A stretch of 64,000 nt of DNA from assembly GCF_035084215.1 (NCBI RefSeq), contig NC_090334.1:70990001-71054000 (forward strand), given 5' to 3'. This DNA comes from Heptranchias perlo (taxonomy: Eukaryota). How positions within the stretch are numbered: the stretch's first letter is position 1; every line of letters starts with the position of its first letter. A program made the translations under genes and the position numbers. The notes under the pieces are model-generated. The model saw only the letters and a list, made by a program, of their open reading frames with translations. It searched no databases and was not told where the DNA came from. Shown in pieces: positions 2,931 to 51,699 of the stretch.

Positions 2931-3493
2931 AGTAGTCGTGCAACTACACATACACCCACTGTATGGTGACCCAATGGGTGGCATCAAAGGTGTTCATGGA
3001 GAACCTCATGATAGGGCCTTATTGCACAAGCCAGTCAAGAATGGCCAAGATGTGGCAGTAGTGGTGACAATATAATATGTAATGTGAGTTGATCAGAAAT
3101 CAAATATAAGTTTAAAAACCATGACAAACCCTCAAATCTTGTGCATCCCCTTCATGCTCATGACACGTTTGCCTTACGCTTCCTACTACACATACGTGAT
3201 GCCTGCTCTGTGGCTGCAGCACAGTTAGTGGCAGGTTGGGTGAGGCTGACCGTGAGAGAGATGCATGAGAGGGTGAGTATGAGACAGAGCCATGAGATTG
3301 TATGAGGATCAGGTTGAGTGGTAGTGCTGGGATGAGTACCGGGGAGGTGAGGAAGTGCAGGTAAGGTAAGGATAAGGGTTCAGTGGGTGTGAGGAGTGAT
3401 GTGATAGAGTAGTGTTGGCAGTGCAGAAGGAGATGTGGGGTGGGGGCAGTGATGTGGCAGAAGGAGTGTAGGGGAATGAGTAAGAGTACTCAC

Positions 3494-8367: not shown

Positions 8368-8622
8368 ATGGCAGAGCAGGTTGTGTGTCTGGACTGCAGT
8401 ATGTGGGAGCTGTGGACAGCGAGAATGTCCTGAGTGAACACATCTTCAGTAGATGTCTCTACCTTGAATCTCTCCAGCTCAGAGTCACTGAGCTGGAGTG
8501 CCAGTTGGAGACACTAACACATAAGGGAGGGGGAGGAGTATCTGGACCATTTGCTGCAGACCTCAGTCACACCTCATAGAGAGGTACGGGATCAGAATGG
8601 GGTTGGTGTGACCAATAGTGTA
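8368..8622 (+). pseudogene. CR1 ORF1 N-terminal zinc-finger/coiled-coil part
   Basis: MAEQVVCLDCSMWEL, then after a frameshift HIFSRCLYLESLQLRVTELECQLETL. Confidence 0.7.
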
Positions 8623-11390
8623 CAAAGTGACAGGCAGGAAGGAAGGGGAGGTGGGGTGGCTATTTTAATAAAGGACGGAATCACTGTAATACAGAGAAAT
8701 GATATTGGGACAAAGGATCAGAATAATGAAACAGTTTGGGTAGAGATAAGGAATAATAAGGGGAAAAAAACACTTGTGGGCGTAGTATATAGGCCTTCGA
8801 ATAGTTGCAACTCTGCTGGAAGAAGTATTAATCAGGAAATAGTCGGGGCATGTAATAAGGGAACAGCTACAATTATGGGGGATTTTAACTATCATATTAA
8901 CTGAACAAATCAAATTGGGCAGGGCAGCCTTGAGGAAGAGTTTATTGAGTGTATTAGGGATGGATTTCTTGAGCAGTATGTAACTGATCCTACAAGGGGG
9001 CAAGCAACCTTGGACCTGGTCCTGTGTAATGAGCCAGGATTAATTTATAATGTCCTAGTTAAGGATCCCCTTGGAATGAGTGACCATAACATGGTTACAT
9101 TCCATATCCAATTAGTGGGTGAGAAGGTTGGTTCTCAAACAAGCGTACTGAGCTTGAATAAAGGAGACTATGATGGTATGAGAGCGGAATTGATTAAAGT
9201 GGACTGGGAAAATAGATTAAAGGGTAAGACTGTACATGAGCAGTGGTGTTCATTCAAGGAGTTATTTTACAACTTTCAAAAAATATATATTCCACTGAGG
9301 AAAAAAGGGTGTAAAAGAAATGACAGCCATCCGTGGCTAAGTAAAGAAATTAAGGATAGTATCCGACTAAAAACAAGGACATATAAGGTAGCCAAACTGA
9401 GTGGGAGGAGAGAAGATTGGGAAGTCTTCAAAAGACAGCAAAAAGTAACTAAAGGATTGATTAAGAAAGGGAAGATGGATTATGAAAATAAATTAGCAAA
9501 AAATATAAAAACAGATAGCAAGAGTTTCTACAGTTATATAAAAAGAAAAAGGGTGGCTAAGGCAAACGTAGGTCCCTTAGAGGATGAGACCGGGAAATTA
9601 ATGGTGGGAAACATGGAGATGGCAAAAATGCTGAACAAATATTTTGTTTCAGTCTTTACGGTAGAGGACACTAAGAATATCCCAACACTGAACAAACAGG
9701 AGGCTCTAGGGGGGGAGGAGCTAAATATGATTAAAATCACTAAGGAATTGGTACTCAGTAAATTAATGGGACTCAAGGCGGATAAATCCCCTGGACCTGA
9801 TGGCTTACATCCTAGGGTCTTGAGGGAAGTGGCAGTAGGGATTGTGGATGCTTTGGTAATAATTTTCCAAAATTCTCTGGACTCGGCAAAGGTCCCGGCA
9901 GATTGGAAAACTGCTATTGTAACACCCTTATTTAAAAAGGGTAGTAGGCAGAAGGCTGGAAATTATAGACCAGTTAGCCTAACATCTGTGGTGGGTAAAA
10001 TTTTGGAGTCTATTATTAAGGAGACAGTAGCAGAACATTTGGATAAACATAATTTAATAGGACAAAGTCAGTATGGCTTTACGAAAGGAAAGTCATGTCT
10101 GACAAATTTGCTTGAGTTCTTTGAGGACATAACGTACAGGGTGGATAAAGGGGAACCAGTGGACGTAGTGTATTTAGACTTCCAAAAGGCATTCGACAAG
10201 GTGCCACATAAAAGATTATTGCTCAAGATAAAGAATCACTGGATTGGGGGTAATATTCTGGCATGGGTGGAGGATTGGTTAACTAACAGGAAGCAGAGAG
10301 TTGGGATAAATGATTCATTCTCGGACTGGCAACCAGTAGCCAGTGGTGTTCCGCAGGGGTCGGTGCTGGGTCCCCAACTCTTTACAATCTATATTAATGA
10401 TTTGGAGGAGGGGACCGAGTGTAACGTATCAAAGTTTGCAGATGATACAATGATGGGAGAGAAAGTGGAGAGTGAGGAGGACATAAAAAACCTACAGGGG
10501 GATTTAGACAGGCTGGGTGAGTGGGCGGAGATTTGGCAGATGCAATACAATATTGGAAAATGTGAGGTTATGCACTTTGGCAGGAAAAATCAGAGAGCAA
10601 GTTATTATCTTAATGGCAAGAAACTGGAAAGTACTGCAGTACAAAGGGATCTGTGGGTCCTGGTGCAAGAAAATCAAAAAGTTAGAATGAAGGTGCAGCA
10701 GGTGATCAAGAAGGCCAACGGAATGTTGGCTTTTATTGCTAGGGGGATAGAATATAAAAACAGGGAGGTATTGCTGCAGTTATATAAGGTATTGGTGAGA
10801 CCACACCTGGAATACTGCATACAGTTTTGGTGTCCATACTTAAGAAAAGACATACTTGCTCTCGAGGCAGTACAAAGAAGGTTCACTCGGTTAATCCCGG
10901 GGATGAGGGGGTGGACATATGAGGAGAGGTTGAATCGATTGGGACTCTACTCATTGGAGTTCAGAAGAATGAGAGGCGATCTTATTGAAACATATAAGAT
11001 TGTGAAGGGGCTTGATTGGGTGGATGCGGTGAGGATGTTCCCAAGGGTGGGTGAAACTAGAACTAGGGGGCATAATCTTAGAATAAGGGCCTGCTCTTTC
11101 AAAACTGAGATGAGGAGAAACTTCTTCACTCAGAGGGTGGTAGGTCTGTGGAATTTGCTGCCCCAGGAAGCTGTGGAAGCTACATCATTAAATAAATTTA
11201 AAACAGAAATCGACAGTTTCCTAGAAGTAAAGGGAATTCGGGGTTACGGGAAGCGGGCAGGAAATTGGACATGAATTTAGATTTGAGGTTAGGATCAGAT
11301 CAGCCATGATCTTATTGAATGGCGGAGCAGGCTTGAGGGGCCGATTGGCCAAATCCTGCTCCTATTTCTTATGTTCTGATGTTCTTATGT
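8623..11390 (+). mobile_element. Young 5'-truncated CR1 inserted into host CR1 ORF1
   Basis: Begins mid-APE domain (DRQEGRGGGVAILIK) and ends in a (TTCTTATG)n-type tail. TGTA occurs at both junctions (8619-8622, 11388-11391). Confidence 0.9.
9010..11274 (+). CDS. CR1 ORF2 (APE C-terminus plus reverse transcriptase). The frame extends upstream to ~8623 with a single TGA at 8902-8904
   Basis: 754-aa ORF with KSPGPDG, NYRPVSLTS, YLDFQKAFDKVPH, GVPQGSVLGP, SKFADD and RPHLEYC motifs. Confidence 0.92.
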   Translation: MDLVLCNEPGLIYNVLVKDPLGMSDHNMVTFHIQLVGEKVGSQTSVLSLNKGDYDGMRAELIKVDWENRLKGKTVHEQWCSFKELFYNFQKIYIPLRKKGCKRNDSHPWLSKEIKDSIRLKTRTYKVAKLSGRREDWEVFKRQQKVTKGLIKKGKMDYENKLAKNIKTDSKSFYSYIKRKRVAKANVGPLEDETGKLMVGNMEMAKMLNKYFVSVFTVEDTKNIPTLNKQEALGGEELNMIKITKELVLSKLMGLKADKSPGPDGLHPRVLREVAVGIVDALVIIFQNSLDSAKVPADWKTAIVTPLFKKGSRQKAGNYRPVSLTSVVGKILESIIKETVAEHLDKHNLIGQSQYGFTKGKSCLTNLLEFFEDITYRVDKGEPVDVVYLDFQKAFDKVPHKRLLLKIKNHWIGGNILAWVEDWLTNRKQRVGINDSFSDWQPVASGVPQGSVLGPQLFTIYINDLEEGTECNVSKFADDTMMGEKVESEEDIKNLQGDLDRLGEWAEIWQMQYNIGKCEVMHFGRKNQRASYYLNGKKLESTAVQRDLWVLVQENQKVRMKVQQVIKKANGMLAFIARGIEYKNREVLLQLYKVLVRPHLEYCIQFWCPYLRKDILALEAVQRRFTRLIPGMRGWTYEERLNRLGLYSLEFRRMRGDLIETYKIVKGLDWVDAVRMFPRVGETRTRGHNLRIRACSFKTEMRRNFFTQRVVGLWNLLPQEAVEATSLNKFKTEIDSFLEVKGIRGYGKRAGNWT

Positions 11391-11391
11391 A

Positions 11392-12060
11392 AGTAAGGGG
11401 CACCCACGTGAGATAGAGAACGAGGATCCACAGAAACTGATCCTATCCAACAGGTACAATGTACTTGCTACTTGGAAGGACAACTGGAATGCTAACCATG
11501 GCACTCTGGAACAGGAAGCTTCCGAAAGGGGGGAGGAGGAGGAGAAGCATGATGTGGTAATTGTAGGGGATTCAATAATTAGGGGGACAGATAGCATCCT
11601 TTGTAAGCAGGATCGAAAGTCCCACATGGTAAGTTGCCTACCTGATGCCAGGGTGAGGGACATCTCAAACCGACTTGAAAGGATGTTGGAGAGGGAGGGG
11701 GAGGATCCAGTCATTGTGGTCCATGTTGGGACCACCAACATAGGAAAAAGTGGACAAGAGGTCCTGGTCAGAGGGTACCAGGAGCTCGGAACTAAATTTA
11801 AAAAAATAGGCCCTCAAGGGTTATAATCTCTGGATTATTATACGAGCCATGTGCAAATTGGTGTTGGGATAGCAGATTCGGGAGGTGAACACGTGGCCAA
11901 AGGAGTGGTGTGGGAAAGAGGGGTTCCATTGCATGGGACATTAGCACCAGTTCTAGGAAGGAAGGTACTTTACCATTGGGATGGGCTCCACCTGAAATGA
12001 GCTGGGACCAGGGTCCTAGCAGAAAGGATAAATAGGGCAGTCACAAGGACTTTAAACTAG
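11392..12060 (+). pseudogene. CR1 ORF1 SGNH/GDSL esterase-like domain (frameshifted)
   Basis: VIVGDSIIRG...CLPDARVRD...VVHVGTTNIGK, later HWDGLHL, ending RTLN*. Confidence 0.85.
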
Positions 12061-14174: not shown

Positions 14175-14557
14175 TTACGTGTAGCGTGACATGAACCCAA
14201 GATCCCGGTTGAGGCCGTCCTCATGGGTGCGGAACTTGGCTATCAATTTTTGCTCGACAATTTTGCGTTGTCGTGTGTCTCGAAGGCCAACTTGGAGAAC
14301 GCTTACCCGAAGATCGGTGGCTGAATGTCCTTGACTGCTAAAGTGTTCCCCGACTGGGAGGGAACCCTCCTGTCTGGCGATTGTTGCGCGGTGTCCGTTC
14401 ATCCGTTGTCGCAGTGTCTGCATGGTCTCGCCAATGTACCATGCTCCGGGGCATCCTTTCCTGCAACGTATGAGGTAGACAACATTGGCCGAGTCACAGG
14501 AGTATGAACCATGTACCTGGTGGGTGGTGTCCTCTCGTGTGATGGTGGTATCCGTGT
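14175..14557 (-). pseudogene. Penelope GIY-YIG endonuclease domain (C-terminal part of the PLE ORF)
   Basis: SCDSANVVYLIRCRKGCPGAWYIGETMQTLRQRMNGH...VGEHF...EQKLIAKFRTHEDGLNRD. Confidence 0.9.
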
Positions 14558-14925
14558 CTTCAGGTAAGCGTTCTCCAAGTCGGCCTTCGAGACACACGAC
14601 AACGCAAAATCATCGAGCAGATATTGATAGCCAAGTTCCGCACCCATGAGGACGGCCTCAACCGGGATCTTGGGTTCATGTCACGCTACACGTAACCCCA
14701 CCAGCAAGGGGAAAAAAAAGTTATCTGTTTTTAATATTCTCTCTCTCTCTCTGCCATTTGGGTCTCTTTCTCTCTGTCTGTATAATTTGACACAATGTAT
14801 ATTCAGTGTACTGGGACGTACTGTTCTCCGTCGCTAATCTGTCTAACACCAACGACACCTTTTGATTGGTGTGATAGTGTCCCCAGCCTAATATAAGATA
14901 TGCGATTTGAGAACCTTTCACTCAT

Positions 14926-28780: not shown

Positions 28781-28926
28781 ATTATAAACAAGTACTGAAA
28801 AACAGGAGAGAATGGATTTGCTAAGCCTGTGCTGAAATATCTCCCTTCCTGGAAGTAAAAGTTTGTTATTCACAATGGTGCTGCTCTCTGATGTGCCCTT
28901 GGAGTAGGAATGCAATGTGCTGACAT

Positions 28927-32832: not shown

Positions 32833-32985
32833 GGTTGGGGTTGTGCACTCCGTGTGAGGTTGGGGTTGTGCACTCCGTGTGAGGTTGGGGTTGTGCACTC
32901 CGTGTGAGGTTGGGGTTGTGCACTCCGTGTGAGGTTGGGGTTGTGCACTCCGTGTGAGGTTGGGGTTGTGCACTCCTTGTGAGGT
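32833..32985. repeat. 25-bp minisatellite, 6 copies
   Basis: Five exact copies of GGTTGGGGTTGTGCACTCCGTGTGA plus one copy with a single substitution. Confidence 0.95.
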
Positions 32986-33611: not shown

Positions 33612-34467
33612 TTATTCATTCATGGGATGTGGGCGTCGCTGGCAAGGCCGGCATTTATTGCCCATCACTAATTGCCCTTGAGAAGGTGATGGTGAGCCAC
33701 CTTCTTGAACCGCTGCAGTCCGTGTGGTGACGGTTCTCCCACAGTGCTGTTAGGAAGGGAGTTCCAGGATTTTGACCCAGCGATGATGAAGGAACGGTGA
33801 TATATTTCCAAGTCGGGATGGTGTGTGACTTGGAGGGGAACGTGCAGGTGGTGTTGTTCCCATGTGCCTGCTGCTCTTGTCCTTCTAGGTGGTAGAGGTC
33901 GTGGGTTTGGGAGGAGCTGTCGAAGAAGCCTTGGCGAGTTGCTGCAGTGCATCCTGTGGACGGTACACACTGCAGCCACTGTGCGCCGGTGGTGAAGGGA
34001 GTGAATGTTTAGGGTGGTGGATGGGGTGCCAATCAAGCGGGCTGCTTTGTCCTGGATGGTGTCGAGCTTCTTGAGTGTTGTTGGAGCTGCACTCATCCAG
34101 GTGAGTGGAGAGTATTCCATCACACTCCTGACTTGTGCCTTGTAGATGGTGGAAAGGCTTTGGGGAGTCAGGAGGTGAGTCACTTGCCGCAGAATACCCA
34201 GCCTCTGACCTGCTCTTGTAGCCACAGTATTTATGTGGCTGGTCCAGTTAAGTTTCTGGTCAATGGTGACCCCCAGGATGTTGATGGTGGGGGATTCGGC
34301 GATGGTAATGCCGTTGAATGTCAAGGGGAGGTGGTTAGACTCTCTCTCGTTGGAGATGGTCATTGCCTGGCACTTATCTGGCACGAATGTTACTTGCCAC
34401 TTATGAGCCCAAGCCTGGATGTTGTCCAGGTCTTGCTGCATCATTATCTGAGGGGTTGCGAATGGAG
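33612..34467 (-). mobile_element. 5'-truncated LINE family B
   Basis: MQQDLDNIQAWAHKWQVTF...RSVMEYSPL...HHLLKGN plus tail. Confidence 0.9.
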
Positions 34468-34832
34468 TATGCATGGCTCCAAGCAAAAAGTTGAAGTGTT
34501 CCCCGACTGGGAGGGAACCCTCCTGTCTGGCGATTGTTGCGCGGTGTCCGTTCATCCGTTGTCGCAGTGTCTGCATGGTCTCGCCAATGTACCATGCTCC
34601 GGGGCATCCTTTCCTGCAACGTATGAGGTAGACAACGTTGGCCGAGTCACAGGAGTATGAACCATGTACCTGGTGGGTGGTGTCCTCTTGTGTGATGGTA
34701 GTATCTGTGTCGATGATCTGGCATGTCTTGCAGAGATTGCCGTTGCAGGGTTGTGTGGTGTCGTGGACGCTGTTCTCCTGAAAGCTGGGTAATTTGCTGC
34801 AAACGATGGTCTGTTTGAGGTTGTCTTCACCT

Positions 34833-36065
34833 GTCTTCACCTTCGACAACCAGTTCTTTACCCAAACACACGGAACAGCCATGGAGACCTAATTCGCACC
34901 CCAATACGCCAACATTTTCATGCATAAATTCGAGCACGACTTCTTCACTGCACAGGACCTCCAACCAACGCTATACACTAGATACATCGACGACATTTTC
35001 TTCCTATGGACCCACGGCGAAGAATCACTGAAGAGACTACATAATAACATCAACAAGTTCCATCCCACCATCAAGCTCACCATGGACTACTCATCAGAAT
35101 CGGTTTCTTTCTTGGACACACGAATCTCCATCAAAGACGGGCACCTCAGCACCTCACTCTACCGCAAGCCCACGGACAACCTCACGATGCTCCACTTTTC
35201 CAGCTTCCACCCTAACCACGTCAAAGAGGCCATCTCCTATGGACAGGCCCTGCAAATACACAGGATCTGCTCAGACGAGGAGGAACGCGATGGACACCTA
35301 CAGACGCTGAAAGACGCCCTCGTAAGAATGGGAGATGACGCTCGACTCGTCGATCGACAGTTCTGACGGGCCACAGCGAAAAATTGCATAGACCTCCTCA
35401 GAAGACAAACACGGGACGCAACCAACAGAGTACTCTTCGTCGTCCAGTACTTCCCCGGAGCAGAGAAACTGCGCCATGTTCTCCGCAGCCTTCAACATGT
35501 CATCGATGACGACGAACACCTCGCTAAGGCCATCCCCACACCTCCACTACTCGCCTTCAAACAGCCACCCAACCTCAAACAGACCATCGTTCGCAGCAAA
35601 TTACCCAGCTTTCAGGAGAACAGCGTCCACAACACCACACAACCCTGCCACGGCAACCTCTGCAAGACATGCCAGATCATCGACACAGATACCACCATCA
35701 CACGAGAAGACACCACCCACCAGGTACATGGTTCATACTCCTGTGACTCGGCCAACGTTGTCTACCGCATACGTTGCAGGAAAGGATGCCCCGGAGCATG
35801 GTACATTGGCGAGACCATGCAGACACTGCGACAACGGATGAACGGACACCGCGCAACAATCGCCAGACAGGAGGGTTCCCTCCCAGTCGGGGAACACTTC
35901 AGCAGTCAAGGACATTCAGCCACTGATCTTCGGGTAAGCGTTCTCCAAGGCGGCCTTCGAGACACAAGACAACGCAAAATCGTCGAGCAGAAATTGATAG
36001 CCAAGTTCCGCACCCATGAGGACGGCCTCAACCGGGATCTTGGGTTCATGTCGCGCTACACGTAA
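34833..36065 (+). pseudogene. Penelope RT core/thumb plus GIY-YIG endonuclease, with in-frame stops
   Basis: FTFDNQFFTQTHGTAM...YTRYIDDIF...SFLDT...LYRKPT...HFSSFHP...CHGNLCKTC...VVYRIRC...WYIGET. Stops near 34890 and at 35364-35366. Confidence 0.9.
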
Positions 36066-41255: not shown

Positions 41256-41630
41256 GGGATATGGTAGCACAGTAGTTATATTACTGGACTAGTAATCCAG
41301 AGAATGTAAATTCAAATCCCACCGTGACAGTTTGAGAATTTGAATTCAATTTTTAAAAAAAGTCTGGAAAAAGAAAGCTGGTATTAGGAAAAGTGATCAC
41401 GAAGCTGTTGGATTATCGTAAAAGCCCAACTGGTTCACTAATGTCCTTTAGGGAAGGAAACCTGCCGTCCTTACCTGGTCTGACCCATATGTGATTCCAG
41501 TTTCACACTAATGTGGTTGACTCTTAACTGCCCTGTGAAGTGGCCTAGCAAGCCACTCAGTAGTATCAAATCGCTAGAAAGGAACAAAGGAATAAAACCA
41601 GACGGACCACTCGGCTGCGACCTAGACACC
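41256..41630 (+). mobile_element. 5' fragment (tRNA-like head plus 5' UTR) of a family B-related element
   Basis: A-box-like TAGCACAGTAG and B-box-like ATTCAAATCC; collinear with the reverse complement of 49750-50108 up to AATAAAACCAGACGGACCAC. Confidence 0.75.
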
Positions 41631-46000: not shown

Positions 46001-46872
46001 TCAAGCTGATTTGCATCTGACCTGGTATTCTTTATCAAATCGTTCCATTTCTAAACCAGTGGTAGACACTGCTGGATCATCAGCTCGCAGCTGTTCAGAG
46101 ATATTTCCTTTAGTCTTCAACTGGCATGGATCCCTGTCCTTTTTCCCTATGTCTCTAACACTGAGGATACTCAACAGCAAGCTCCTATGCCTTGTCATGG
46201 CAAATTGTGCAGAAAATAATGGATTATTCACGGTCAAATGTCAAAATACATGAAAAGTCATAGACATATTTTGCAGTAACCAAGCTTATCTTTATTTTGA
46301 TCTACTTCTGCCTCTCCTCCACTTCTGTTTCTCTCCTCCATTTCTTTCCCTTCCCTCTTCTTATTCTGGTTTTACCTCTCAGCTGTCTGCGACTGCAGTT
46401 GTGGGCAGGAAGAGGCATAGGCTTTGGGACTGAGGTGAGCAGGTAATTTACAATCAGTGGTTTAAGGACTCAGATGGGTGAGTAAGTCAGAGGCAGCAAT
46501 ATTGGTAGCCAATGGGACTGGGGCTTGGAGGAAAGGGATGCTGGTAATGCTGTCATATCCTGTGGGGGCGTCTTAGAGACTCCCAGTTAGTGGCTGTCTG
46601 TGGTATCACATCTTTTGGGGTGCCAAGGGTCCCAGGTTCAGTGCCCCAGGCAAGCCTTTTCAGGGCCGAGTCAGTTGCTCCAGCATTGGCTTGCCCAAGC
46701 TGTATTGTCAACCCTCTCGCCTGCTACTAGCATAGAGCCACATATGAGTGAGGTTAGCACTATTAATGAATACAACTCACTTTGGAATATCCTGCTGGTG
46801 GATAATCAAATGGAATGAAATGCAGTGTTGCCAGCTCTCCCACTGGGAATGCACATGGCTGACATACATGCT

Positions 46873-49800
46873 TTTATTTAAATTCGTTCATGGGATGTGG
46901 GAGTCACAGGCGAGGCCGGCATTTATTGCCCATCCCTAATTGCCCTTGAGAAGGTGGTGGTGAGTCGCCTTCTTGAATTACTGCAGTCCGTGTGGTGAAG
47001 GTTCTCCCACAGTGCTGTTAGGAAGGGAGTTCCAGGATTTTGACCTAGCGACGATGAAGGAACGGCGATATATTTCCAAGTCAGGATGGTGTGTGACTTG
47101 GAGGGGAACGTGCAGGTGGTGGTGTTCCCATGTACCTGCTGCCCTTGTCCTTCTAGGTGGTAGAGGTTGTGGGTTTGGGAGGTGCTGTCGAAGAAGCCTT
47201 AGCAAGTTGCTGCAGTGCATCCTGTGGATGGTGCACACTGCAGCCACTGTGCGCCGGTGGTGGAGGCAGTGAATGTTTAGGGTGGTGGATGGGGTGCCAA
47301 TCAAGCGGGCTGCTTTGTCCTGGATGGTGTCGAGCTTCTTGAGTGTTGTTGGAGCTGCACTCATCCAGGCAAATGGAAAGTATTCCATCACACTCCTGAC
47401 TTGTGCCTTGCAGATGGTGGAAAGGCTTTGGGGAGTCAGGAGGTGAGTCACTCACCGCAGAATACCCAGCCTCTGACCTGCTCTTGTAGCCACAGTATTT
47501 ATGTGGCTGGTCCAGTTAAGTTTCTGGTCAATGGTGACCCCCCCAGGATGTTGATGGTGGGGGATTCGGCGATGGTAATGCCGTTGAATATCAAGGGGAG
47601 GTGGTTAGACTCTCTCTTGTTGGAGATGGTCATTGCCTGGCACTTGTGTAGCTTGAATGTTACTTGCCTGGATGTTGTCCAGGTCTTGCTGCATGCGGGC
47701 ACGGACTGCTTCATTATCTGAGAAGTTGCAAATGGAACTGAACACTGTGCAATCATCAGCGAACATCCCCATTTCTGACCTTATGATGGAGGGAAGGTCA
47801 TTGATGAAGCAGCTGAAGATGGTTGGGCCTAGGACACTGCCCTGAGGAACTCCTGCAGCAATGTTCTGGGGCTGAGATGATTGTTCTCCAACAACCACTA
47901 CCATCTTCCTTTGTGCTCGGTATGACTCCAGCCACTGGAGAGTATTCCCTCTGATTCCCATTGACTTCAATTTTACTAGGGCTCCTTGGTTCCACACTCG
48001 GTCAAATGCTGCCTTGATGTCAAGGGCAGTTACTCTCTTTTGTCCATGTTTGGACCAAGACTGTAATGAGGTCTGGAGCTGAGTGGTGCTGGAGGAACCC
48101 AAACTGAGCATCGGTGAGCAGGTTATTGGTGAGTAAGTGCCGCTTGATAGCACTGTCGACAACACCTTCCATCACTTTGCTGATAATTGAGAGTAGACTG
48201 ATGGGGCGGTAATTGGCTGGATTGGATTTGTCCTGCTTTTTGTGGACAGGACATACATGGGCAATTTTCCACATTGTTGGGTAGATGCCAGTGTTGTAGC
48301 TGTACTGGAACAGCTTGGCTAGAGGCGCAGCTAGTTCTGGAGCACAAGTCTTCATCACTACAGCCAGGATGTTGTCGGGACCCATAGCCTTTGCTGTATC
48401 CAGGGCACTCAGCTGTTTCTTGATATCACGTGGAGTGAATCGAATTGGCTGAAGACTGGCTTCTGTGATGGTGGGGATATCGGGAGGAGGCCGAGATGGA
48501 TCATCTACTCGACACTTCTGGCTGAAGATGGTTGCAAACACTTCAGCCTTGTCTTCTGCACTCACGTGCTGGACTCTGTCATCATTGAGGATGTGGATAT
48601 TTACAGAGCCTCCTCCTCCCGTTAGTTGTTTAATTGTCCACCACCATTCACGACTGGATGTGGCAGGACTGCAGAGCTTTGATTTGATGCATTGGTTGTG
48701 GAATCGCTTAGTTTTGTCTATAGCATGTTGCTTCCGCTGTTTAGCATGCATGCAGTCCTGTATTGTAGCTTCACCAGGTTGGCACCTCATTTTTAGGTAC
48801 ACCTGGTGCTGCTCCTGGCAAGCTCTTCTACACTCCTCATTGAACCAGGGTTGATCCCCTGGCTTGTTGGTAATGGTAGAGTGAGGAATATGCCAGGCCC
48901 ATGAGGTTACAGATTGTGGTGGAATACAATTCTGCTGCTGCTGATGGCCCACAGCACCTGATGGATGCCCAGTTTTGAGCTGCTAGATCTGTTCTGAATC
49001 TATCCCATTTAGCACGGTGGTAGTGCCACACAACACGTTGGATGGTGTCCTCAGTGCGAAGACGAGACTTCGTCTCCACGAGGACTATGCGGTGGTCACT
49101 CCTACCAATACTGTCATGGACAGATGCATCTGCAACAGGTAGATTGGTGAGGACGAGGTCAAGTACGTTTTTCCCTCGTGTTGGTTCGCTCACCACCTGC
49201 CGAAGGCCCAGTCTGGCAGCTATGTCCTTCAGGACTCGGCCAGCTCGGTCAGTCGTGGTGCTATCGAGCCACTCTTGGATGGACAATGAAGTCCCCCACC
49301 CAGAGTACATTCTGTGCCCTTGCTACCCTCAGTGCTTCCTCCAAGTGGTGCTCAACATGGAGGAGGACTGATTCATCAGCAGAGGGAGGGCGGTAGGTGG
49401 TAATCAGCAGGAGGTTTCCTTGCCCATGTTTGACCTGATGCCATGAGATTTCATAGGGTCCGGAGTCAATGTTGAGGACTCCCACGGCCACTCCCTCCTG
49501 ACTGTATATCACTGTACCGCCACCTCTGGTGGGTCTGTTCTGCCAGTGGGACAGGACATGCCCAGGGATGGTGATAGAGGTGTCTGGGATGTTGCCAAAC
49601 GGTATGATTCTGTGAGTGTGGCTATGTCAGGCTGTTGCTTGACTCGTCTGTGGAACAGCTCTCCCAATTTTGGCACAAGTCCCCAGATGTTCATGAGGAG
49701 GACTTTGCAGGGTTGACTGGGCTTGGTTTGCCTTTGTCGTGTCCGGTGCCTAGTGGTCCGTCCGGTTTTATTCTTATTATGACTTTTCGTAGCAAAATTT

Positions 49801-50108
49801 TACAACTGAGTGGCTTGTTAGGCCATTTCAGAGGGCAATTAAGCATCAACCACATTGTTGTGGGTCTGGAGTCACATATCGGCCAGACCGGGTAAGGACG
49901 GCAGGATTTCCTTCCCTGAAGGATATTAGTGAACCAGATGGGTTTATACAACAATCCGGTAGTTTCATGGCCACCATTACTGATACTAGTTTTTTTTAAA
50001 TTCCAGATTTTTTTTTATTTAATTGAATTTAAATTCCCTAGCTGCCGTGGCAGGAATTGAACTCTGGATTACTAGTCCAGTAACATAACCACTATGCTAC
50101 TGTACCCG
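46873..50108 (-). mobile_element. Full-length LINE family B (CR1-group APE-RT, no ORF1, tRNA-like 5' head), frameshifted
   Basis: TSD ATGCT (46868-46872 and 50109-50113). A ~410-bp 5' region precedes APE (NIWGL, LTESY, YRPP, VGDF, LDLVLTN, SDH) and RT (KAMGPD, NYRPISLL, LDIKAAFDRVW, GVPQGSVLGP, FADD). Conserved tail plus A-tract. Confidence 0.9.
50053..50107 (-). promoter_or_regulatory. tRNA-type internal Pol III promoter at the 5' end of the family B LINE
   Basis: A-box TAGCATAGTGG (50089-50099) fits TRGCNNARYGG; B-box GTTCAATTCC (50053-50062) fits GTTCRANNC. Confidence 0.7.
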
Positions 50109-51699
50109 ATGCTCTACTGCGAGCAACGATCCTCATCTTCCAGTTAGGACCCACCTCAAGGATGCACAATACTGCAGGTGCTGACTGCAGAGGGAGAAAA
50201 GTGCTGCTAAAAGTACCAGTCATACCAGTCTGGTGCTCTTCATTGAGAGAACTGGCAGCGTTATTTGATTTTTAAAAAATTCTGGCGGCAGGCTTTTCCA
50301 GAGCAGAGCGCTCTTCATTCATAGTGCTGCCCTTACTCATCTGTGGCAGGATTAGAAGGGATCAGCTAAGGTATGGGGCAGAGCAATTCTTTTTGAATTA
50401 GGACTTGCTCGGTGGGCTGGATGAAATTGTGAAGTGGGACAGAGTTAGCCTACAGATCACGTGTCAGACAGTTCAGCCACCTGGCACTAAGGCACATTGT
50501 TGGGGAAGACTCGAGAGATCTGGGAGCTGGAATTGGGTACCCAAAATAAAATAGAATTCCATGCTGCAGCATTGATGTTTTGACAAGGACAAACAAATCA
50601 CCAAACATATAAATAAGAAAAAAATTACCATTGCTATACTTATCGCCTTTGAAACTATTGCTCCTATAACAGAAATTTATTTAACGTGGATGACATTTTT
50701 CTGACTTTATGAAGTTTTTCACCACATTACTTTTTCCTGTAAAATACTAAAACAAAATCTATTTAAAACTTCACTTGTTCCCTAGTTTTTGTTATACTAG
50801 ATCATGCTTTGAAACTAGGTCTGGACTGAGAATAATTACCTCATTTAATGTAAACACCCAATATCTACCCTGTATCTGAAAATGTCAAAACTAATTTGAA
50901 AAAAAATACTCCCTAACATTCTTGCCTTTCACTAATTTGAAAGGGTTATATTGTTGCATCCTGCTGTGAGTTTTAAATAAATGGTGAGAAATTAAGAAAT
51001 GTAGGCCAGCTGGGTTAGTGCAATGGGTTAGTCTCTGCCTTTCAACTCCAGTATCAGACTTACACAATGAAAGCTTTGCTCGCTGTAAGGGTCCAGTTCC
51101 CCATTCAATTCTCAGTGATCATAGGTCCTCAGGTTAGAACCAGCTCTAATTTGTAAGGCTACAGGATAGCTGGTGTGAGAACTGGCTAAATGGCACAGTG
51201 GTGTGAAAGGGATGCCCTCAGAGCTTGGGGCCAAGTTGAATTGTTGGTGAGAGTAGACGGAGTTTACTCTTTTTCAAACCATGCAATGCTTGATGCCGAC
51301 ACTGGCTGTCCAAAATGGAACGCACACCATTCCCCAGAGCAACGCTTATATCCTTCACCTTGATGAACACAATAACCCACATACTCAGGAAGGAAAATTC
51401 TGTAAAAGTTATCCTTGAACTGCCCTTGGGGAAAACTCTATGAAATCTATTGATCCTTCCTGCAGCAATACTGAAGCCTGGCCAATTGTTCTCTACACAT
51501 GACATTTCTATTGTCCCGGCAGCACAGCTTTTTTCCTGCAGTGTTGTATTATCTTGCTCAATACTTCATCCCTCCAACCGTCAATCTCATTCATCTAAGC
51601 ATTTTGTGAAGGAGTTAGTTGCCATCACCACCTGCTTTTTCTGGGACTGTGGTCCATAGATCCACTACATTAGGATTTTTGTTTTCTCATCTAGTTTTA

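Follow-up and report, generated by a model that had tools for sequence, protein, structure and literature searches.

A decayed copy of an elasmobranch CR1-Zenon LINE, a family that is already published, lies on the minus strand of the window (the whole 64,000-nucleotide stretch of Heptranchias perlo DNA that was analysed, from a genome of 3.25 Gb), and the element begins with a tRNA-derived head that contains an A box and a B box. The Zenon family, its loss of ORF1 and its A tail are known already, while the tRNA-derived head has apparently gone unnoticed. Judged from the sequence, the promoter in this head is probably, though by no means certainly, used by Pol III in sharks and rays.

Family Assignment and Anatomy of the Window Copy

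The family majority, built from 31 loci and the window copy (out of 40 fetched stretches, 39 of them distinct), is 3297 nt long and has one frame of 967 codons; member copies are 95–98% identical to it. The single APE-RT frame described in the initial annotation exists in this majority and in copy L037, where it is unbroken and contains APE and RT domains, but the window copy itself has six frameshifting indels and two stop codons (Table 1). The product of an unbroken copy (P0001, 968 aa) matches Pfam PF03372/PF14529 and PF00078, and the database proteins nearest to the Zenon frame, among them moth and lancelet proteins, are 33–43% identical. The family is assigned to CR1-Zenon because its 5' 400 nt, compared by eye, closely match published consensuses that are placed in this clade (PMC13343379). 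The elements of five elasmobranchs described in the available parts of that paper lack ORF1 and end in a poly-A tail, and the window family likewise has a single APE and RT frame, no ORF1 and a poly-A tail; an A tail is typical there of every Zenon, headless ones included. The consensuses CarCar, HypSab, RhiTyp and ScyCan Zenon-1 and SquAca Zenon-1/2/3 (PMC13343379) belong to the same family. SquAca_Zenon-1 shares, by eye, roughly 90% or more identity with the window family over the first 400 nt, and the Zenon-1 consensus lengths given in the available parts (3.24–3.31 kb) compare with 3297 nt here. Within the first 400 letters, again by eye, all seven published shark and ray consensuses open with the head and UTR; two hagfish and one coelacanth Zenon consensuses are headless and have T4+ runs within their first 400 nt.

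The word 'tRNA' does not occur in the available text and supplement of PMC13343379, nor Pol III in that text, and no description of the head, the T-run deficit or the missing AUG was found there. The available parts of PMC4824008, PMC11481361 and bioRxiv 10.1101/443036 contained no claim of a tRNA-headed Zenon. The head is undescribed in the open-access literature searched; Repbase, Dfam, subscription journals or bioRxiv supplements may note it.

Table 1. Features of the Zenon copy and related elements (window coordinates).
Feature	Position	Strand	Remarks
Full-length dead elasmobranch Zenon LINE	46873..50107	-	96% identity to 3297-nt family majority
tRNA-derived head, family 5' terminus	50043..50107	-	Inter-box spacer 27 nt shorter than majority
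A box	50089..50099	-	Alignable with the A boxes of the genome's tRNA genes
Anticodon-arm-like hairpin	50064..50080	-	Present twice in about half of family copies
B box	50053..50062	-	10 letters identical to B box of genomic tRNA-Thr(TGT) genes
Conserved 5' UTR block	49800..49942	-	Also in short derivatives and all published shark/ray consensuses
Hairpin with 7-nt anticodon-like loop	49806..49831	-	Loop CTAGCAA in majority, CTAACAA in window copy
Sole sense TTTT	49794..49797	-	Private mutation in 7-nt linker preceding GCT
Conserved GCTA	49790..49793	-	GCT in frame with APE-RT; candidate non-AUG start and putative loop pseudoknot partner
APE-RT reading frame	46936..49793	-	Disrupted (6 frameshifting indels, 2 stops); endonuclease motif I at 49691
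3' UTR	46873..46935	-	Stem-loop (majority z -2.2), AATAAA at 46922-46927, short A-rich tail at 46873-46882
5-bp direct repeat, 5' copy	50109..50113	-	Possible TSD; chance level possible
5-bp direct repeat, 3' copy	46868..46872	-	Possible TSD; chance level possible
Older-subfamily copy, 5' part (head and UTR)	41256..41620	+	77% identity; T5 at 41350-41354

Other Zenon pieces inside the window are mostly 3' fragments. The window also contains RT and GIY-YIG-like frames (34893–36065, plus strand; 14175–14609, minus; about 34440–34890, minus) of what we take to be Penelope elements, which served as a control for T-runs; an inverted partial copy of one Penelope-like element adjoins a Zenon fragment. 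A CR1 copy (8518–11274 and 11380–11826, plus strand) has an unbroken 789-aa RT frame, followed by a fragment that presumably corresponds to an esterase-type ORF1, and a 25-bp tandem repeat (6.1 copies, 99% matches) lies at 32833–32985.

The best full-length metagenome relative, L171 (37%), is the one headless full-length relative used for comparison; by eye it has an in-frame AUG, and no B-box match was found upstream. No relatives were returned by a single-protein metagenome scan or a viral scan, Rfam gave nothing credible on the loci of seven relatives, and relaxed ARAGORN on metagenome loci gave noise. A short UTR motif, twice repeated in L171 (400–490) and seen by eye also in the hagfish Zenon-2 consensus, is without an Rfam match and may form a structured RNA in headless Zenons. 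In run X22 of organism H, 20 raw reads match the UTR and head (compared with L037:4010–4440) and none the endonuclease part; they may derive from a rare, distantly related UTR block or be contaminants.

The Head as the 5' End of the Family

The suggestion that the head moves with the LINE was borne out, as the head is the fixed 5' end across the family. Searching with the APE region alone yielded 4638 candidates; 40 were scored, and among the 29 other loci that were inspected, 17 extend to element position 11 or below and the remaining 12 break off in the UTR or at the APE start. With a second APE query, 22 of 29 loci reach position 16 or less. The head start is common to 39 of the 58 copies chosen in this way, which end at the head about 430 nt upstream of motif I and have flanks that are unrelated apart from other repeats. 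Therefore, nothing ORF1-like lies upstream of the head, in agreement with the earlier statement that ORF1 is absent, a trait already published for Zenon (PMC13343379). Contigs assembled from public runs of organisms A, B, C and D, which indicate presence only even for RNA-labelled runs, have loose ends at the identical base. A headless full-length form with a different 5' end was not seen among the APE-picked copies, the two subfamilies or the seven published shark and ray consensuses.

The proposed target-site duplication, by contrast, is no better than chance. AGCAT is present at both ends of the window copy, but family-wide the end matches are no longer than those of random pairs: 1 of 27 full-length copies has an end-to-end match of 5 nt or more, versus 2.0% of random flank pairs. 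The duplication was rejected as proof of co-insertion, and the prediction that full-length copies begin with the head inside a duplication holds for the head start and fails for the duplication. Seven of the 27 full-length copies interrupt older repeats, the halves of which rejoin within −4 to +7 nt, indicating that the element inserts as one unit from head to tail. Short A-rich tails are present in all 27 full-length copies scored. Beside Zenon 5' ends at L072, L153, L077, L050 and L054, we observed heads duplicated in inverse orientation, one inversion, and full-length copies in tandem or nested arrangement.

Promoter Boxes and tRNA Likeness

The two elements of the head that we take to be A and B boxes fit the type-2 consensus as initially described and align with the boxes of the genomic tRNA-Cys and tRNA-Thr genes, the two kinds of gene that the comparison covered. 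As in a type-2 unit, the A/B spacing is tRNA-like, with a shortening in the window copy, and the element starts just 5' of the A box, 8 nt upstream. By eye, the A box is intact in all seven shark and ray consensuses, with changes limited to degenerate positions, and the B box fits in six of the seven, the inter-box spacer being different; across the published consensuses, conservation of the UTR block equals that of the boxes. The designation of the head as tRNA-like is correct for the boxes, but the head makes a poor tRNA: it scores 16.6 bits with Rfam against a cut-off of 29, is not recognised by ARAGORN, has a fold z of −0.24, and its acceptor and T stems are unpaired. As the cloverleaf is not maintained and the boxes are kept, constraint appears to act on the boxes and not on the fold. 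On contig G000:C23, nearly identical tRNA-Cys and tRNA-Thr genes form dense arrays, with about 2.4–4 kb from one gene to the next.

The anatomy of the head end is like that of SINE2 or tRNA-derived SINEs, as far as described in the available parts of PMC7245038, PMC5499810 and PMC5786205. 'SINEs cannot encode a protein' (PMC5786205, in the part available); in contrast to SINE2, full-length Zenon encodes APE-RT, and among Zenon forms, only the short derivatives are non-coding and non-autonomous. No resemblance to bivalve MetaSINE consensuses was seen by eye, and a MetaSINE body was rejected.

Runs of T in the Sense Strand

The single sense TTTT that had been noted in the window copy is a private change, at a site where the majority reads TCTC, and the claim of more than ten sense AAAA runs was confirmed by 15 runs of four or more A. 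The older-subfamily copy does lack a T-run at the corresponding site, as had been stated, but has a T5 elsewhere (Table 1). The 3' fragments at 28926, 33614, 38337 and 58864 are free of TTTT, also as claimed; they are about 92% identical pieces of one family and therefore not independent tests. The CR1 copies used for comparison are indeed rich in TTTT (8, 9, 2 and 1 in 2757, 1914, 840 and 389 nt, respectively), and their strands are T-richer than Zenon (T fraction 0.23–0.27 versus 0.17–0.20).

The majority contains no T4, seven T3, 19 A4, 12 C4 and seven G4 runs, and T4+ inside the transcript is absent from both the young and the older majorities. A base shuffle of the whole element predicts 4.2 T4 (P 0.0125) and 20.8 T3, and with a dinucleotide-preserving shuffle the values become P 0.13 for T4 and P 0.05 for T3. 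When protein and codon usage of the ORF are preserved, 0 T4 are observed versus 1.9 expected (P 0.10) and 5 T3 versus 12.0 (P 0.001–0.003); with a CpG control added, the figures are 0 versus 1.2 for T4 (P 0.27), 5 versus 10.0 for T3 (P 0.02) and 81 versus 88 for TT (P 0.03). The absence of TTTT was therefore rejected as proof of selection, being not significant (P 0.10–0.27) with one to two runs expected from codon usage. Of the proposed selection against Pol III terminators, the argument from TTTT is thus explained by base and codon composition, an outcome that the initial annotation had itself listed as counting against its reading, and the deficit of TTT and TT remains. The codon-preserving shuffle with a CR1 control, which the initial annotation had called for, gave the same divided answer: T4 is not significant, but T3 is modestly depleted in Zenon and not in the controls (31 versus 30.8 expected in CR1, 6 versus 5.2 in the Penelope-like frame and 62 versus 59.7 in L171; TTTT in L171 is 17 versus 15.9).

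In a comparison set of 62 frames, four from the genome of the window and 58 from metagenome loci (those of 80 loci whose open frame measures at least 1200 nt), the T3 ratio of observed to expected by base composition is lowest in Zenon (0.30), in a set in which most controls are T-richer than Zenon and few are composition-matched. The codon-controlled T3 ratio of a 696-nt Penelope-like piece is below that of Zenon, two control frames have more negative shuffle z values (−3.0 and −2.9 versus −2.2), and the low-T relative L186 is also free of TTTT over 1.2–1.4 kb.

The older subfamily was sampled with 33 loci and 11 earlier loci, by a tight pattern, as older-copy seeds returned mostly the young family. 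Its majority has no T4 and six T3, with three T3 in the ORF versus 7.4–9.7 expected; it is 94% identical to the young majority, and the two are therefore not independent tests. Just behind the head, T4–5 occurs in 16 of 30 older head-bearing copies, a count biased by a query that carried this run, and in 1 of 11 readable copies of an unbiased sample. Since T intrudes into the A-run of the tail in 5 of 27 young copies, the T-runs of individual copies are read as post-insertion drift. Overall, the T-run pattern is compatible with Pol III and modestly suggestive of it, but is not proof.

Translation Start

No in-frame AUG is present upstream of the endonuclease, and the first in-frame methionine is residue 281, beyond this domain. 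An ATG immediately precedes endonuclease motif I in five copies (the window copy at 49692–49694, minus strand, L038, L058, L067 and L068), where the majority reads ACT; it probably lies too far downstream to work as a start. The frame is open from a GCT 33–39 codons upstream of the endonuclease. The distance from GCT to motif I is a multiple of three in 68 of 86 young and five of seven old copies, with the classes of 99, 102, 114 and 117 nt making up 63 of the 86, and of the seven published consensuses, by eye, four keep the GCT in frame and the three from dogfish do not. These data suggest that translation likely starts near GCT at a non-AUG codon. From an AUG at majority position 276, a frame of about 70 aa runs in −1 and overlaps the APE-RT start; by eye it is broken in several published consensuses, and it could alternatively explain the in-frame indels.

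In the dicistrovirus IGR IRES, an anticodon-like mimic pairs with an in-frame codon and sets the frame without an AUG. The Zenon UTR offers a lead to a mechanism that would work alike, as the central AGC of its 7-nt hairpin loop could pair with the GCT 12 nt downstream, and by eye none of the seven published shark and ray consensuses departs from the loop or the GCTA. In contrast to the IGR IRES, the putative pseudoknot has only four possible pairs, among which no compensating change was seen, and no strong fold of the upstream block: the overall fold of the conserved UTR block is not significant (z about −1, for nested folds only), and Rfam contained no IRES match at E≤10. The loop CTAACAA occurs uncompensated in 10 of 87 young copies, including the window copy. 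A T-to-G change of the second loop base recurs in 13 of 87 young copies, as a subfamily variant or a context-dependent mutation.

Short Derivatives

Thirty loci were found with the 41256 copy, of which nine continue into the LINE body and 21 join head and UTR directly to the tail. In these short derivatives, head and UTR end at about 316–366, and the junction to the tail falls at 17 different positions from 3133 to 3233; public runs contain corresponding skips of about 2.9 kb. The many independent junctions suggest repeated deletion from a headed LINE, as for Persaeus, but template switching onto a discrete RNA of about 340 nt would look alike. The direction of events may be either capture of a SINE head by the LINE or birth of SINE-like forms from the LINE. 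In the available parts of PMC6740152, lepidopteran Zenon is likewise ORF1-less and gives rise to short internally deleted elements, the SIDE Persaeus, with variable breakpoints and an A tail. Persaeus carries the Zenon 5' end, without tRNA homology or a Pol III promoter (PMC6740152, same parts); unlike it, the short derivatives found here carry a tRNA-derived head. Their layout of tRNA head, body and LINE tail corresponds to that of bipartite SINEs (PMC5786205) and shark SacSINE1 (PMC5499810), as available.

Transcription of Zenon

In the reading judged more likely than not, Pol III would be recruited to the head by TFIIIC and TFIIIB, initiate at the G 8 nt before the A box, traverse the whole element and terminate where the flank offers a run of T. 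Translation of the uncapped RNA would begin in the GCT region, and pairing of the anticodon-like hairpin with GCTA, the weakest step and a doubtful one, might assist the start. The APE-RT would bind the 3' stem-loop and carry out target-primed reverse transcription, with duplications of 0–4 bp or small deletions, and internal deletions would produce head-and-tail copies resembling ordinary SINEs. Protein is produced from Pol III-driven reporters, and deletion of one TTTT about doubled the output (PMC8223928, in the part available). Taken in its entirety, with an autonomous Zenon transcribed end to end from a captured tRNA promoter, AUG-less translation of uncapped RNA via a tRNA-mimic pseudoknot and SINE-like offspring by internal deletion, this scheme is unlikely.

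Also rather unlikely is an ordinary Pol II-transcribed Zenon that captured a SINE-derived 5' part once, with this part or the UTR block now serving as an internal Pol II promoter; the boxes would persist by slow shark evolution or TFIIIC binding, and the T-poverty would be compositional. An AATAAA 40 nt upstream of the tail in the window copy would fit such a transcript, as would the A tail shared with headless Zenons (PMC13343379, available parts), the non-significant absence of T4, the UTR block conserved as well as the boxes, the upstream AUG-led frame and, going by its title, a study of Pol III promoters used by Pol II that is listed in the references of PMC8223928. Against Pol II transcription speak a 5' end exactly at the expected type-2 Pol III start, A-box changes confined across species to degenerate positions, a TT and TTT deficit that outlasts codon and CpG controls, and the lack of an in-frame AUG.

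Sharp 5' ends can also arise without a promoter, as in R2, where they are made by ribozymes. Zenon could thus be read through in host transcripts, with the tRNA-like head as a processing signal for an RNase P-like cut; its sharp 5' boundary and a non-AUG start, which uncapped RNA would suit, are consistent with this, but such processing needs paired acceptor and T stems, which the head lacks (z −0.24), its boxes being kept and its fold not, rendering read-through improbable. In the whale shark, 39% of CR1-Zenon copies are intronic (bioRxiv 10.1101/443036, available part), which would favour read-through. Chance juxtaposition or recurrent dead chimeras, in which an independent SINE lies beside or was template-switched onto 5'-truncated LINEs, would account for the abundance of short head-UTR-tail elements, but can be dismissed as highly improbable: the head-UTR-APE junction recurs in 39 of the 58 copies picked by APE, in both subfamilies and in the seven published consensuses, which come from five species, and none of these sources showed a full-length form that lacks the head and has a different 5' end.

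Implications

LINEs are usually transcribed as Pol II mRNAs and SINEs as non-coding Pol III RNAs. If Pol III transcription of Zenon, the preferred reading, is true, a tRNA promoter in a LINE would predate the shark–ray split, and Zenon would provide a natural protein-coding vertebrate Pol III transcript of 3.3 kb, raising the testable question of how uncapped RNA is translated. Deletion would then also be a way to turn a LINE directly into a SINE. Should Pol III play no part, Zenon would still be a published family with an unnoticed SINE-derived 5' end.
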